Part shown: one piece after another, positions 9,099-59,368 of the stretch | Position numbering within the stretch: position 1 is the stretch's first letter | Layout of the letters: each line of letters begins with the position of its first letter | Origin: an uncultured Actinomycetota bacterium | GTDB taxonomy: Bacteria; Actinomycetota; Actinomycetes; JAHEKZ01 | NCBI GenBank assembly: GCA_963743915.1 | Contig: CAVURN010000005.1 | Location: forward strand, 275,358 to 339,357 | Length of the DNA stretch: 64,000 bases | Direction of reading: 5' to 3' | Notes under the pieces: generated by a model | The model's database searches: none | What the model was told of the DNA's origin: nothing | Seen by the model: the letters and a program-made list of their open reading frames with translations, nothing else | Program-made: the position numbers and the translations under genes

Positions 9099-9247
9099 CG
9101 GCTCATTCTCGCGCTCCCGCCCGGGGCGGACACAATTGCGTCTGGGGAGCGTTTCACCTGCCGTGCCGGGGCGCCGATGCCTGAAGATGGGGTGGGCCAC
9201 CTCCGGCTGGCCCCTGCCCGCCTGCCGTCGACCGTTGTGAGGGTGCC

Positions 9248-24238: not shown

Positions 24239-24310
24239 CTTGGCATCGAGTGATCCCCATCAGTTGGCGAGCTGTGTCAACCTCTGGGGGTGGTCCGGCG
24301 ACTCTCGGGC

Positions 24311-24883
24311 ATGACGAACTCAGCTGCGGAGGAGATTCTCTCCACAGATGATCGGCGCGTCACCCGCGCCCAGCGGGCAACGGCGCCCGCTCGAGACGAG
24401 CTCGTCGACATGCTGTTCCGACAGCACTACACCGAGCTGCTCAGACTCGCCGTCGTCATGATCGGTGACCGCGAGGCCGCGGAGGATGCCGTCCAGGACG
24501 CCTTCGCGAGCCTCCACCGCAACTGGCGCGCGCTGCGCGAACCCGACGTGGCCGAGGCCTATCTGCGTTCCACCGTGCTCAACCGCTGTCGCTCGTGGGT
24601 ACGGCGTCAGGTCACCCAGCGGGCCGCACGACCGCTGATGCTCATCCGTCAGCACCAGCCAAGCGCGGAGGACACGATCGTGGACCGAGACGAGGTCGGG
24701 TCACTGGTGGCGGTCATGCGCACGCTGCCCCGACGTCAGCGTGAGGTGCTCGCCTGTCGGTTCGTCCTCGACCTCTCGGTGGAAGAAACAGCTCATCTGC
24801 TCTCGATCAGCGAGGGATCGGTCAAGACCCACAGCCATCGCGGCTTGAAGGCGCTCGAGAAGCGGATCGAGGTGACCCGATGA
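24311..24883 (+). CDS. ECF-type RNA polymerase sigma-70 factor
   Basis: sigma-2 region DAVQDAFASLHRNWRALREP...AYLRSTVLNRCRSWVRRQ; sigma-4 LPRRQREVLACRFVLDLSVEETAHLLSISEGSVKTHSHRGLKALEKR; start 24311 or GTG 24290. Confidence 0.8.
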   Translation: MTNSAAEEILSTDDRRVTRAQRATAPARDELVDMLFRQHYTELLRLAVVMIGDREAAEDAVQDAFASLHRNWRALREPDVAEAYLRSTVLNRCRSWVRRQVTQRAARPLMLIRQHQPSAEDTIVDRDEVGSLVAVMRTLPRRQREVLACRFVLDLSVEETAHLLSISEGSVKTHSHRGLKALEKRIEVTR

Positions 24884-25800
24884 GCACCATCGAAGAGCAG
24901 CTGCAACGGGACATCTCGGCAGTAACCGGAGGTGTCGTCGTGACGGATTCAGACCTGCGAGAAGCCCGGGCAGTCCATGGAGGATCGCATCGAGGCGACG
25001 GGCAGAGCGAGCCGTGATCGCACCTTTCTGGCAGCCGCCGCGGCGGCCGTAGTGGTTGCGGGCGCTGGCCTTCGCGGCGCTTCCAGGCGCTGTCCGAGGA
25101 CGACGACACGGCGGTGCCGCCGGCCGGTGGCGAAGGTCCACCGATGACTCTACGCGGACTTCCTGAACGGAGAGGCTCCGACGCACGAGAACTCATCGAC
25201 GGGTTCTGGCGGGTCGACAACGGCAACCTCATGGTGCGGTTCCAGCAGGACGGAACCGTTCAGTTCTCCGACAAGGGCGCGGTCATCTCCGACCCCGTCA
25301 CCATCGGAACCTACGAGATCGATGGGCGACACGATCACGGTGACGCGTCCGATGCGCCTGGCTGCGTCAGCCCGGAGTGGACCATGCGCGCCGCACTATC
25401 CGCGAGCCGGGAGATCGCCAACCTCGTCCTGTCCGACTTGGAGTTCGGGACTGCGACAGCGTCGCATCGACGATCGTCCTGCACCAGGTCGTCCCGACGG
25501 GATCGATCCTCGCCGACATGGACAACTCCGGCTGTGCGTGGCTGGCAGGCGACGACCGACAGGAAGTGGCTCTTCGGCGACTGGATGGCGGAGGGCGGCG
25601 GCTACCTCCTGGAGACTCACCCAGGACGGGTCCTACTACGTCGTCGATGAGTCTGCTGACGTGGTCGACAACGGCCGCTGGCGGTTCCGCGAGCTCAGAC
25701 GCTGGAGCTCTTCAGCCGGACCGAGTCGCCACAGTGCGACGAAGGCGACTCGCTCGTACTCGGCAACCTGGAGCAGGTCACCCCCGGCACCACCATGATT
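24880..25800 (+). pseudogene. anti-sigma-factor-like membrane protein downstream of ECF sigma, fragmented over all three frames (at least 5 frameshifts)
   Basis: ATGA overlap with sigma stop; frame0 MSTIEEQLQRDISAVTGGVVVTDSDLREARAVHGG...stop at 25017; frame+1 ...RDRTFLAAAAAAVVVAGAGL (TM); frame0 ...ELIDGFWRVDNGNLMVRFQQDGTVQFSDKGAVISDPVTIGTYEIDG...SPEWTMRAALSASREIANLVLSDLEFG; later protein-like pieces in frames +2, 0, +1; 3' limit uncertain. Confidence 0.45.
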
Positions 25801-25896
25801 CGTGGGACCGTCGAGCAGAACGACTGCGGCGGGGGCTGGACACCGCAGACGTGGATCCGGATCCCCGACACCAGCCCTTCGGACACCAGCGGCGAG

Positions 25897-26280
25897 CTAG
25901 TCGGCGAGCTGACCCAGCGGGTGCAGCAGACAGAACTCGTTTCCCTCGGGATCGGCCAGCACTGCCCACGGCGCATCGCCCTGCCCGACGTCGACTCGGA
26001 CGGCACCGACATCGAGCAGGCGTTGCAGCTCAGCCTCGTGGTCACCGTCGACCGGGCGCACGTCGACGTGCAGCCGCAGCTTCTGCAACTTGGCGTTTGT
26101 GCTCGGCACGAACACGAGGGTTGGTCCTTGCTGCTCCTCAGGTGAGGCACCGATCTCGACCTGGCCGTCGTAGCGGTCAAGAACCGACCAGCCCAGGACC
26201 TCGCACCAGAACGCAGCGAGGCCCTCGGGGTCACGAGCATCCAGGACGAGCTCGCTCAGTCGTGATGTCACATGAGTCAT
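25897..26280 (-). CDS. VOC/glyoxalase-like domain protein
   Basis: MTHVTSRLSELVLDARDPEGLAAFWCEVLGWSVLDRYDGQVEIGA...LHVDVRPVDGDHEAELQRLLDVGAVRVD...AVLADPEGNEFCLL; ATG 26280; track ORF has 66 aa 5' junk. Confidence 0.6.
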   Translation of the reverse strand: MTHVTSRLSELVLDARDPEGLAAFWCEVLGWSVLDRYDGQVEIGASPEEQQGPTLVFVPSTNAKLQKLRLHVDVRPVDGDHEAELQRLLDVGAVRVDVGQGDAPWAVLADPEGNEFCLLHPLGQLAD

Positions 26281-34144: not shown

Positions 34145-35087
34145 TCAGGGCGCGAGGGAGGCGGCGATGCCGTCGAGGATGTCGCGCTCGCTCACCAGCA
34201 CCTCCGGAACGCCGCAGTAGGCCACCACCGCCGACAGCACCAGCGAGCCTGCCGCGATCACGTCGACCCGCCCGGGGTGGATCACCGGGTTGGCTGCCCG
34301 CTTCTCCCGCGTGGAGTAGAGCAGCTCTTCGCAGACGCGGTGCACATCGGCTGCGGTGATCACCGCACCGTGGATCCTGGCGGAGTCGTACTCCCACATC
34401 CCCATCGCCAGCGCAGCCACCGTGGTGACCGACCCGGCCAGGCCGACCAGGGTCGCAGCCTGTCGCAGCGGAACCGTCGTGGCCGCCTCACGAATCGCGG
34501 CATCGATGTCGTCACGCGCCGCAGCCACCTCACCCGGCCAGGGCGGGTCGGTCACGAAGTGGCGCTCGGTCATGCGCACGCATCCGACGTCCACGGACGC
34601 GGACGCGGTGGGCTCACGTCCCGGCTCACCCATCACGAACTCGGTCGATCCACCACCGATGTCGACCACCAGGCAAGGCGGGGCGGCAGTGACGATGTCG
34701 AGGTCGCGCGTGGCGCCCGCGAACGAGAGGGCGGCTTCCTCCGCACCCGAGATCACCTCCGGCTCGACCCCGAGTCGCCCCCGGATGCCCGACACGAAGA
34801 CATCCCGGTTGTCGGCATCACGGGTGGCGGACGTCGCGACGAATCGCAGGGCATCGCGCTCCCGTCGACTCGATGATCCCGGCGTACTCCTCCACCGCTG
34901 CGAAGGTCCTCTCGAGCGCCGCCTCGGACAGGTGACCCGTGGCGTCCACCCCCTCCCCGAGGCGGACGATGCGCATCTCCCGCGCGACGTCGACCAGGAG
35001 TCCCGACCTGTCGTCCACCTCGACGACCAGCAGGCGGACAGAGTTGGTGCCGCAGTCGATCGCGGCGACGCGCCGCGCGCCGCTCAC
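34145..35087 (-). pseudogene. ppx: exopolyphosphatase Ppx/GppA family, frameshifted near 34850
   Basis: N-part VSGARRVAAIDCGTNSVRLLVVEV...EEYAGIIESTG (ORF 34818-35216 frame) and C-part RDALRFVATSATRDADNRDVFVSGIRGRLGVEPEVISGAEEAALSF... (ORF 34145-34795) are in different frames; GTG 35087 overlaps DUF501 stop. Confidence 0.65.
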
Positions 35088-35591
35088 GATGCCGCCTCGG
35101 CGCAGGTCTGCCCGCGTGCCAGCCCGCGTTCGGCGATCTCGCTCAACGCCTCGTCTCCGAACGGGTTGACGCCGGGGCCGGCAGCCAGTGCATGACCGAC
35201 CAGGACGTGCAGACACTTCACCCGGTCCGGCATGCCGCCGGCGGTCACTCCCGCGATCTCCGGCACGTCACCGATCGCCGTGCGCTGCGCCAGGTACGAC
35301 TGGTGCGCCTTCCGGTACGTGGCCGCGAGCTCATCGTCCACCGCGAGCCGCTCCTGCATCTCACGCATGCGCCCCTCGGCCTCGAGCGTGCTGACCGCAC
35401 CGGTCAGGCGGGCACAGGTCAGGTAGTACAAGCGTCGGGAAGGGGGTGCCATCGGGAAGCCGTGGCTCGGTCTCGACCACGTCGGGCTCCCCGCACGCGC
35501 AACGGTGGGCCACTCGGCGCAGACCTCGGGGCTCGCGACCGAGCTGTCGCCGCACTGCGGCGCGGTCCGACTCGGTCACCCCGGGGGGCAT
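35084..35591 (-). pseudogene. DUF501 protein (Rv1025-like), frameshifted near 35428
   Basis: N-part ...RRQLGREPRGLRRVAHRCACGEPDVVETEPRLPDGTPFPTL in one frame, C-part LYYLTCARLTGAVSTLEAEGRMREMQERL...MPDRVKCLHVLVGHALAAG in another; junction acgcttgtactac (one extra nt). Confidence 0.6.
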
Positions 35592-45912: not shown

Positions 45913-47111
45913 ATGGAGACGCACCACCCCGGCCTCACCGACGGCCTTGCGCCGCTCTGGGAGCCCGGGCCGGTCGGCCCGACCCGCCCCTTCCTGGTGC
46001 TGCCCTCCGCCGACGACCCCCGCCTCGTGCTGCCGGCGGGGCGCGGACGGGCCGCCGCCACAGTCCTGCACGCGTTGCGGGACGAGTCGACGGCCAAGGC
46101 GCGCACCCTCTCGTGGGCCCTGCGCGGCGCTGCCCTGCTCCACGTGCGCACCACCGAGCTGCCTGACCCGCCGCTCCTGGCGGCCGTCGCCAGACACCTG
46201 GCACCGGAGAGCGTCGCCGCCGACCTCGTGTACGGCGTCCACCTGGGCCCGCGTCGCGCGAACCGGAAGCCGGTCCTGGCCGTGGCCGGACGGGACGGTG
46301 CGCTCCTCGCCATCGTCAAGTGGGGCATGAACCCGCTCACCGACCGGCTTGTCGCCCACGAGGCGACGGCGCTGCACCAGCTGACCTCCCTGCCCGCGCA
46401 CTCGGGGGTGCAGGTCCCGAGACTCCTCGGTCAGGGGGATTTCGCCGGACACCCCTACGTCGTGCAGTCACCCGTGCCCACCAGCGGAGCGGGTCCGTGG
46501 TCGCTCGACCGCGCCATCGAAGCCCAGGTGGCAGTGGCGACGTCGGGCGGACAGGCGGATGCCGAGGACTACCTCACCCGCTTCGCCGCGGCGTGGCGGG
46601 ACCGACCCACCACCTGCGACCCGGTGGACCGCGACGCCGCCCAGGCGTTCGGGGCGCTGGCGACGACCTGGCTCGGCCACGTCCGACAGTCCTCGCTCGG
46701 GCACGGCAGGTGGCACGGCGACTGGCGTAGGACCAACATGGCCCTCACCCGGGACGGCTGCTCGGTGTGGGACTGGGAGCGGTTCGACAGCGGCGCTCCC
46801 CTCGGGTACGACGCGCTGCACCTCTTCCTCACCGGCCGCGCCGGTTCGGTGCAGGACCTCACCACGCTGCCCGCGGACGTCTTCGCGAACGCCGCGCGCC
46901 TGCTCCGACCGTTCGGCGATCGAGAGCCGCGACGACGCCGAGCTGGTCACCTGCGGCTACCTGCTCGAGCTGGCCGGCCGGTACCTCGACGACGGTCAGT
47001 CGACCTCGGGCGCACGTCTGGGAGACAGTCGCCCACTGGCTGCTGCCCACCCTCACCAGCGTCCTGAAGGAACCCACCACCGGGCACGAACAAGGAGCGA
47101 ACGAGCAGTGA
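45913..47111 (+). pseudogene. aminoglycoside/choline-kinase-like phosphotransferase (APH fold), C-terminus split over three frames
   Basis: HGDWRRTNMAL (Brenner HGDxxxxN), VWDWERF (DxE); after ...RLLRPFGDR continues in +1 frame (SRDDAELVTCGYLLELAGRYLDDGQ) then +2 frame (...VWETVAHWLLPTLTSVLKEP...ANEQ*), whose stop overlaps next gene GTG (GTGA). Confidence 0.55.
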
Positions 47112-47963
47112 GCAGTCTGCGGGGCAAGAGCAGAAGAGCGGCGCGAGCCGCGGCCGACCGGGTCGGCCGGCGGACGTCGTCGCGCCGGGTCCTGCCGACC
47201 ATGCTCATCGTGGGCGGGCAACGGTGCGGCACGACCACGCTCTTCAAGGCGCTGCTCGAGCACCCGGGGTTCGTCGGGCCGACGCTCCGCAAGGGCGTGC
47301 ACTACTTCGACCTCAATGCCGATCGACCCCTGGACTGGTACCGCAGCCACTTCCCCACCGAGTCCAGCGTCGAACAGGATCGCGCAGCGCCAGGGGCACT
47401 CCGTGGTCGTCGGCGAGTCGAGCCCGTACTACATGTGGCACCCGCTGGCGCCCGAGCGGATCGCCACGGCCCTGCCCGACGTGAAGGTCATCGCCCTGCT
47501 GCGTGACCCGGTGGCCCGCGCCTACTCCGCCCATGCCCACGAGCTCGCGCGCGGCTTCGAGACCGAACCGTTCGAGCGAGCACTCGAACTCGAGGAGGAG
47601 CGCCTGGCCGGCGAGGAGGAGCGCCTACGCAGCGGCGCGGTCACGCGCAGCCTCGCGCACCAGCATCTCGCCTACGTCCGTCGGGGGCAGTACATCGACC
47701 AGCTCGAGCGTCTCGAGGCGGCCCTGGGCCGCGAACGCATCCTGGTCGTCGACAGCGTCGCCCTCTGGTCCTCGCCGGAGGAGCGCTGGCCCGAGGTCAC
47801 CCGGTTTCTCGGCCTCCCGGACCACCCGGTGTCGATCGAGCGTCACAACGCCCGTTCGCGCTCTCCCCTGGACGACGCCCTCCGAGAACGTCTCGAGGCG
47901 CACTACGTGCCCTACGACGAGCGGCTGGCCGCCTGGTGGGGACGCACCCCGAGCTGGCGGTGA
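47108..47963 (+). pseudogene. Stf0-like sulfotransferase, single frameshift in a GGGG run at 47393-47396
   Basis: N-part VSSLRGKS...LPTMLIVGGQRCGTTTLFKALLEHPGF...WYRSHFPTESSVEQDRAAP; C-part (ORF 47316 frame) GHSVVVGESSPYYMWHP...IALLRDPVARAYSAHAHE...; removing one G restores APGHSVVVGE. Confidence 0.65.
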
Positions 47964-58404: not shown

Positions 58405-58419
58405 TAGAAGGGAGTCCGA

Positions 58420-59368
58420 ATGACGACGGACCTCACCACGCTCTACAACCCCCCGGTGGACCCCGCCGCCGTTGACGCACCCCCTCGCCAGAGCGCCTTT
58501 CACCGCTTCTGGCTCTACTACTTCATCATCGTGCCGCTGCTGGCCCTGGTCGCCGCCATCCCCCTGGCGTGGGGCGGTTTCGTCGGGCCGGTCGACCTGG
58601 TCCTGCTGGTCGTCTTCTACGCGGTGAGCGCGACGGGCATCACGGTCGGATTCCACCGGCACTTCACCCACGGCGCCTTCAAGGCCAAGCCATGGGTCCG
58701 CGTGATGCTGGCCGTCGCCGGGCAGCCTCGCGATCGAGGGTCCGCTCGACCAGTGGGTCGCCGACCACCGCAAGCACCACGCCTTCAGCGACAAGGAAGG
58801 TGACCCGCACTCCCCCTGGCGTTTCGGTGACTCCGTCCCCGCGCTGCTCAAGGGGCTGTACTACGCGCACATGGGGTGGTTCTTCGACGACGGCCACAGC
58901 TCCCGTGCCAAGTACGCGCCCGACCTGCTCGAGGACCGGGCGATGCGTCGCGTCTCCGCGAACTTCGGCTGGCTGGTGCTCGCGTCGGTGCTGCTCCCTG
59001 CCCTGCTCGGCGGGCTGCTCACGTGGTCGTGGTGGGGCGTCGTGACCGGTCTGGTGTGGGGCGGCTTCATCCGGATCGCCCTCGTCCACCACATCACCTG
59101 GTCGATCAACTCGATCTGCCACGTGATGGGGGAACACCCGTTCAAGTCACGCGACCGTTCCGGGAATGTCTGGTGGCTCGCGATCCCGTCGTTCGGCGAG
59201 AGCTGGCACAACCTGCACCACGCCGACCCCACCTGCGCCCGTCACGGCGTCGAGAAGGGGCAGATCGACATCAGCGCACGACTGATCCGGTGGATGGAGA
59301 AGGCCGGGTGGGTCTGGGACGTCCGCTGGCCCAAACGCACCAGGCTGGAAGCCCGTCGCGCCGGATGA
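58420..59368 (+). pseudogene. acyl-CoA/acyl-lipid fatty acid desaturase (DesA3-like), frameshifted at GGG run 58720-58722
   Basis: first His box GFHRHFTHGAFKAKPW in 58420 frame; downstream in +1 frame ...SLAIEGPLDQWVADHRKHHAFSDKEGDPHSP...GESWHNLHH (third His box); removing one G restores VAGSLAIEG. Confidence 0.7.

Follow-up and report, generated by a model that had tools for sequence, protein, structure and literature searches.

The sigma factor gene and its surroundings

The stretch of DNA analysed here, referred to throughout as the window, comprises 64,000 nucleotides from an uncultured Actinomycetota bacterium and has a G+C content of about 70%. It contains an intact ECF sigma factor gene at 24311..24883 on the forward strand, with matches to the Pfam families Sigma70_r2 (E = 1.5e-11) and Sigma70_r4_2 (E = 6.5e-13). 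The 190 aa product consists of regions sigma2 and sigma4 only. It scores 75.9 bits against TIGR02937 (sigma70-ECF; cutoff 42.9), which places it among the ECF (group IV) sigma factors. Its top NCBIfam match is TIGR02983 (SigE-fam_strep), yet at 126.4 bits this lies below the cutoff of 141.55 and assignment to that subfamily is not supported. The end of the sigma gene overlaps, in an ATGA at 24880, the start of a second forward-strand gene, which we call X (24880..25900). X encodes a sigma-coupled single-pass membrane protein and is split over three frames; it was delimited by matches to the repaired protein and by frameshift-aware and DNA alignments, and its stop codon is the TAG at 25898-25900. 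An earlier note on this DNA had described an intact sigma gene with ATGA coupling to the gene that follows, and the ORF, the Pfam domains and the overlap at 24880 all bear this description out. The second gene is likewise present as the note described, except that it runs 100 bp further than was then thought.

On the reverse strand an intact, convergent glyoxalase/VOC gene (25897..26280; Pfam Glyoxalase_6, full length) marks where the indel cluster described below ends on its 3' side. The stop codons of X and of the glyoxalase gene overlap in the tetranucleotide CTAG at 25897-25900. All four genes around X, those for YCII, sigma, glyoxalase and CBS, are intact. A glyoxalase gene also occurs on the related contig L001 and on the contig that encodes the X homologue P0003, and none lies between X and the CBS gene in loci L002, L004, L007, L008 and L009.

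Upstream of the sigma gene we found an ECF-type promoter-like motif, GTCAACC-N16-CGACTC, at 24276..24304 on the forward strand, which is its sole match within the whole window. The motif occupies the same place before the sigma gene in seven loci, namely the window, L002 (5394-5420), L003 (5303-5329), L004 (9397-9423), L005 (9393-9419), L006 (9394-9420) and L008 (1432-1458). It is a likely autoregulatory ECF promoter. Only 6 nt separate its end from the sigma ATG in the window, which suggests that the transcript is probably leaderless or near-leaderless, and its position also supports the ATG at 24311 over the GTG at 24290 as the start of the sigma gene. L004 has a second copy of the motif on the opposite strand, at 9134-9161. 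We infer an ECF sigma gene of the ordinary autoregulated kind, whose translation would be coupled to that of a single-pass membrane protein.

Gene X is divided among three reading frames

In the window the ORF that begins at 24880 stops after 45 codons, while a strong GC3 coding signal persists to about 25900. The GC3 frame plot of 24880-25900 follows the coding frame through f1>f2>f3>f1>f2>f1>f3>f1>f2>f1, that is, at least nine hops, and a hidden Markov model of codon-position G+C labels 24875-25695 as ‘non-coding’, and no stretch so labelled elsewhere in the window is as long. In a frameshift-aware protein-to-DNA alignment the closest orthologue, P0001 (334 aa), aligns from its first to its last residue with 294 of 334 residues identical (88%), and 14-16 frameshifts are needed to achieve this; a further frameshift at 25894 is required to reach the stop codon at 25898-25900. 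The frameshift-aware and DNA alignments together place a cluster of 17-18 single-base frameshifting indels at 24972..25894 on the forward strand, and as given X carries these lesions and several in-frame stops. Extra bases are found at approximately 24972, 25060, 25079, 25150, 25193, 25195, 25322, 25398, 25402, 25414, 25532, 25614, 25693, 25699 and 25894, and missing bases at approximately 25345 and 25450. Insertions therefore outnumber deletions by about 15:2 (P = 0.001 against 1:1), with the reservation that the linker at about 25144-25150 can be read as one extra base or as two missing ones, so that the total could be 14 extra and 4 missing.

The cluster lies wholly inside X, beginning 93 nt past the start and ending 4 nt before the stop codon. 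The earlier note had a membrane gene shattered over three frames, a view with which the GC3 plot and the alignment agree. It had put the density of frameshifts at one per 150-200 bp, far above the rest of the window; the local excess is real, and the density is considerably higher, at 17-18 in 923 bp or about one per 54 bp. We considered whether the indels compensate for one another in groups, as they would under selection for frame, and rejected this, as f1 is regained about one third of the time, which is the chance expectation, and there are stops in the shifted stretches. Programmed frameshifting, phase variation and diversification of the DGR type were also rejected, given the 17 sites, the lack of slippery or homopolymer context, and changes that are indels and not A-directed substitutions.

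The X family

Conceptual repair of the frame followed by a search, the course proposed in the earlier note, retrieves a conserved family: 108 homologues of 300-350 aa match the repaired protein over 95-98% of its length, all of them single ORFs and most of them unnamed. The orthologues are 330-338 aa in length. The closest is P0001, whose gene lies on the 1.7-kb contig L001, where a sigma gene, X and a convergent glyoxalase gene are arranged as in the window. A scan of genome contigs returned only three distant loci, with 39-63% identity, and a scan of metagenome contigs returned two loci at 64%; there was no close relative in either set. The start of X overlaps the end of the sigma gene in eight of nine related loci, among them that of Marmoricola sp. 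RAF53, a cultured isolate; for the ninth, L007, upstream sequence is missing. Sigma and X are coupled in the same way on the P0003 contig.

The AF2 monomer model of P0001 has helices at residues 3-16 and 23-41 (low confidence), a TM helix at 50-68 and then a disordered linker. The corresponding part of X, a cytoplasmic N-terminus with two predicted helices and the TM helix ..RDRTFLAAAAAAVVVAALAFAAF.., is encoded at 24880..25080 on the forward strand and is read in f1, f2 and then f3, with frame switches at about 24972, 25060 and 25079. An Arg-rich stretch before the TM helix suggests an N-in topology. The stretch at 25196..25893 on the forward strand is predicted to encode two tandem beta-rich, lipocalin-like ectodomains, on the basis of the AF2 model (domains at approximately residues 100-201 and 225-322 of P0001, pLDDT near 90), weak profile matches and a fold match. 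The anatomy given in the earlier note is right: the N-terminus is cytoplasmic and short, a TM helix follows, the ectodomain is rich in beta structure, and these parts are spread over different frames. Four Cys residues (C159, C188, C281 and C311) are invariant. The profile matches are to DUF5640 and Lipocalin_4, which are below the Pfam gathering threshold in 15 and 11 of 19 members, respectively (P0001 scores 22.9 bits against DUF5640, where 28.5 are required). The best and only meaningful PDB fold match of the P0001 model is 4nw4, a DUF4822 protein (Foldseek E = 3e-5, probability 1.00).

The X ectodomain therefore resembles DUF4822 (PDB 4nw4, EF0375), DUF5640 and Lipocalin_4 in that it is predicted to consist of two small beta-barrel domains. 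It differs from them in that all of the sequence matches of X are below Pfam gathering and the whole-chain TM-score is low, at 0.23-0.28. No function is known for any of these three families, nor is any of them known to be linked to sigma factors.

Is X an anti-sigma factor?

The pairing of an ECF sigma factor with a membrane-bound anti-sigma factor is known in actinobacteria, for example in the SigK-RskA, SigD-RsdA and SigE-family (TIGR02983) loci. The locus described here resembles such pairs in that its sigma factor has only regions 2 and 4, its putative autoregulatory promoter is conserved and the gene downstream is translationally coupled. X itself is comparable in being N-in and single-pass, with a cytoplasmic N-terminus that is short and helical and a domain beyond the membrane. 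Unlike the proteins of such pairs, X has neither a ZAS motif nor an above-threshold anti-sigma domain, no more than about 45 of its residues are cytoplasmic, its ectodomain consists of tandem lipocalin-like barrels, and the accompanying sigma factor is under the TIGR02983 cutoff.

No anti-sigma Pfam family was detected in 19 X members at E <= 0.1, and the NCBIfam matches of X were sub-threshold only (NF038083 at 19-20 bits and NF052375 at 19.7 bits, against cutoffs of 100). The N-terminal 45 or so residues of close orthologues contain no Cys or His from which the ZAS zinc motif HxxxCxxC could be formed, and a search of the PDB returned no sequence relative of X. The functional definition of an anti-sigma factor has two parts, that its gene adjoins the ECF sigma gene and is co-transcribed with it, and that the protein would bind and inhibit this sigma factor and release it on a signal; the overlapping X starts in eight of nine loci bear out the first. 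From this conserved context we consider it fairly probable that X is the anti-sigma factor of the adjacent sigma factor. As no known anti-sigma domain is present, the term ‘anti-sigma’ is a functional one drawn from context, and membership of a known family is not supported. The label ‘anti-sigma-like’ in the earlier note is thus sound as regards the conserved coupling to a sigma gene, and does not hold as regards a known anti-sigma domain, none being detectable.

Decay of X or error in the consensus

The frameshifts in X may be real mutations or they may have been introduced during sequencing and assembly. The earlier note took the former position, in which X is a pseudogene inactivated by many frameshifts and the sigma factor is permanently released, so that its regulon would be constitutively on. 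If so, the locus would be an example from nature of an ECF sigma factor no longer tied to its membrane partner. The frameshifts are present in the sequence as given and the lesions are confined to X, with both flanking genes intact, and both points favour this reading. Loss of anti-sigma function by frameshift is also a known adaptive route; in Pseudomonas aeruginosa, mucA frameshifts release AlgU, these being one or few mutations that typically occur in homopolymer runs. The scenario for X is similar to that of mucA in that a frameshift in an anti-sigma factor would de-repress an ECF sigma factor. Unlike the mucA alleles, X has 17 non-homopolymer insertions and an intact codon bias, and since one disabling mutation suffices, the accumulation of 17 would need long neutral decay.

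The extent of substitution does not support such decay. The 3' part of X (25196-25896) differs from L001 by 16 substitutions (2.3%) and 11 indels, while in the sigma CDS there are 67 substitutions (13.9%) and no indels in 483 columns (Fisher P = 2e-7). The glyoxalase gene has two substitutions and no indels in 114 columns. Neutral decay for long enough to produce 17 indels should have left many more substitutions than are seen. The GC3 of the repaired X is 0.865, compared with 0.86 in the intact orthologue, so that codon bias has not decayed, and identity to the orthologue is still 88%. An excess of deletions is generally reported for bacterial pseudogenes, and the 15:2 bias towards insertion is the opposite of this. 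The insertions also avoid homopolymers, which is where slippage occurs, and the sigma gene and the promoter motif are still under apparent constraint. Signs of pseudogene decay were looked for in X, namely a raised number of substitutions, a weakened codon bias and an excess of deletions among the indels, and none was found. The divergence from L001 over 24397-26010 of the window is itself a mosaic, 13.9% in the sigma CDS and about 2% in the 3' part of X and the tail of the glyoxalase gene, a pattern that would be compatible both with recombination between lineages and with a chimeric consensus.

Related DNA is also informative. The exact 190-aa sigma protein is encoded on a 1313-bp Logan contig from a short-read dataset, SRR13608723, where the ORF 3' of the sigma gene begins in an identical ATGA overlap and runs without a stop through 224 codons, until the contig ends, while that in the window stops after 45. 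This contig spans only the first 224 codons of X (two thirds of the gene) and might be from another strain that shares the sigma protein. The earlier note had named a single intact ORF here in resequenced DNA as telling against its own proposal, and the contig supplies this in part, for at least 224 of the approximately 335 codons. Ten guessed repaired versions of the 224-residue N-terminus of X were looked up exactly, and none is on record. The fragment is probably absent from the protein collection, because it is also missing among the homologues of the repaired X. The identical sigma factor is recorded too as a 157-aa call (P0113) on a 582-kb NCBI/ENA contig. With an open ORF beside an identical sigma factor, an unusual indel spectrum, a retained codon bias and a low substitution load, we regard a real pseudogene, and with it the permanent release of the sigma factor, as improbable, and a technical origin of one kind or another for the frameshifts in X as highly probable.

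Most insertions fall where orthologues vary

The nature of the inserted bases suggests what kind of technical origin this may be. All nine of the clear insertions in 25196-25896 duplicate neither neighbouring base (P ~0.003-0.005 under random insertion). Each pairs with an adjacent base as an ‘either/or’, and seven of the nine pairs match alleles or residues of orthologues (L001, L007, L008 and P0006). At 25321-4 the pair is GA[T/G], encoding D or E, with GAG in L007. The pair at 25398 is CT[A/T], where L001 has CTT and the column varies, with CTC in L007; that at 25402 is CC[G/C], where L001 and L007 both have CCC and CCG was not seen. At 25413-4, [G/A]TC encodes V or I, and both residues are found in the family. 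GG[C/T] at 25532 includes the GGC of L008, and GA[G/A] at 25614 the GAA of L001, all others having GAG. Of the remaining pairs, GA[G/C] at 25693 includes the GAG of L008, [G/A]CG at 25699 encodes A or T, with T in P0006, and [G/A]GC at 25894 includes the AGC of L001, GGC not having been seen. Further upstream both members of the pairs G[C/G]G and GC[G/C] are present in L001 and L007. The distribution of the insertions over the three codon slots, 5:3:1, is not significantly non-random. Indels at polymorphic sites, retention of both alleles and avoidance of homopolymers, which together would characterise an artefact of consensus building, are thus all present in X.

A mechanism that would produce this pattern can be outlined as follows. 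Reads of two closely related, co-occurring strains would have been collapsed into one contig, and at sites of SNPs between the strains the consensus would have kept both alleles side by side. Keeping both adds one base and so shifts the frame. A few two-base runs would, in addition, have been shortened in the consensus. The two strains would then differ at about 25 sites within X, and the cluster, through the retention of both alleles, would mark where the sensor gene is highly polymorphic at the level of strains. The assembly would also have sporadic frameshift errors elsewhere. We infer both the two-strain mechanism and a long-read metagenome assembly as its source, and lean towards the reading in which the organism has an intact X, the cluster being a consensus error that arose from co-assembled strains. 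Counted against an artefact is that the cluster fits inside one gene more tidily than a random patch of error usually does.

INDEL errors and apparent frameshifts are known to arise from the collapsing of nearby allelic variants (PMC8445201). In Trypanosoma brucei Lister 427, allelic variants shift the alignment of reads, the collapsed consensus gains indels that truncate ORFs, and phasing restores the full-length genes (PMC8445201). X is similar in that its indels sit where orthologues vary. The two cases differ in that Lister 427 is a diploid eukaryote for which reads are available, while here the ‘alleles’ would be those of co-occurring strains and the mechanism is deduced from the pattern of the sequence. 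In soil samples, ONT assemblies have more frequent frameshift errors than HiFi assemblies (PMC13087279).

The related loci L002-L005 are named in the form contig_NNNNN, which is typical of long-read metagenome assemblies, and L004 and L005 belong to Microflora Danica MAGs, for which only Nanopore reads were used, assembled by Flye with one round of Medaka (PMC12313526). There are frameshifts in several genes of L002, L003 and L005, and the CBS, sigma, MutL and Cys/Met-metabolism genes of L003 and L005 are in pieces.

How local the cluster is

When the ORFs of L004, a related MAG contig, are compared with the window, every window gene in 17.1-33.8 kb except X is covered by a single full-length HSP. 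In the rest of the window we identified at least three isolated frameshifts in about 63 kb. Because the background is this low, the cluster in X amounts to an approximately 390-fold local excess (Poisson P ~1e-38). The remaining apparent frame switches in the window were examined as possible frameshifts and proved to be ordinary gene boundaries.

The first of the three frameshifts splits a Ppx/GppA gene on the reverse strand (34821-35267 and 34148-35083, junction at about 34850), where one base is missing in a G-run (ACGGG|GAGCGC). Joining the two frames makes the Pfam match contiguous over profile positions 3-271 and raises it from 154 to 195 bits. A sulfotransferase gene on the forward strand (46385-47503 and 47112-47960, junction at about 47370) is divided by a single additional base (GTC GA[A/C] AGG); once repaired it matches Sulfotransfer_3 over positions 2-214 with 39.5 bits, which passes the gathering score of 27. 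The third is a fatty-acid desaturase gene, also on the forward strand (58408-58800 and 58706-59365, junction at about 58722), with one extra base (GCC GG[G/C] AGC) and, after repair, a match to FA_desaturase over positions 7-229 (72.7 bits). In each of the three genes the match becomes contiguous and scores higher when the frames are joined. The lesions in the desaturase and sulfotransferase genes are of the type found in X, a +1 insertion with two different bases at the third codon position.

These observations bear on a further explanation, that the cluster is a technical error of another kind, such as a low-coverage or poorly polished patch, a gap filled with noisy reads or mis-polishing by cross-mapped reads. 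X would again be intact, and there would have been no retention of two alleles. The evidence that X is intact is common to this explanation and to that of collapsed strains. In its favour, there are sporadic frameshifts elsewhere in the window, that in the Ppx gene is a simple G-run contraction, and the length of the cluster, about 920 bp, would suit a local patch. Random noise, however, would be expected often to duplicate a neighbouring base and to hit homopolymers, which none of the nine clear insertions does, and most of the insertions create pairs of alleles that are known from orthologues. Residual Nanopore errors are, moreover, usually homopolymer deletions and not non-homopolymer insertions. 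We therefore consider an error of this other kind rather unlikely, though a good deal less so than a real pseudogene. More improbable still is that the 17 insertions are real in a living lineage, which would call for an insertion-prone process acting at polymorphic sites of X, with the partner destroyed and the regulon locked on.

Implications for the annotation of such loci

The value of the collapsed-strain reading is mainly cautionary: a cluster of the type found in X should not be counted as gene loss. The signature of a mixed-strain consensus would be a dense and local set of non-homopolymer +1 insertions in a gene with an intact codon bias and few substitutions. There is also a modest positive result, the definition of a conserved, uncharacterised, sigma-coupled family with a helical N-terminus, a TM helix, two lipocalin-like ectodomains and four Cys residues. 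Together with the conserved promoter motif, this family makes up a candidate new ECF sigma/anti-sigma module in Actinomycetota. Frame-shifted products of such assemblies are already entering public protein databases. One of them, P0106, is translated from a copy of X with a shifted frame, located on L002 (6001-7020), a long-read metagenome contig.
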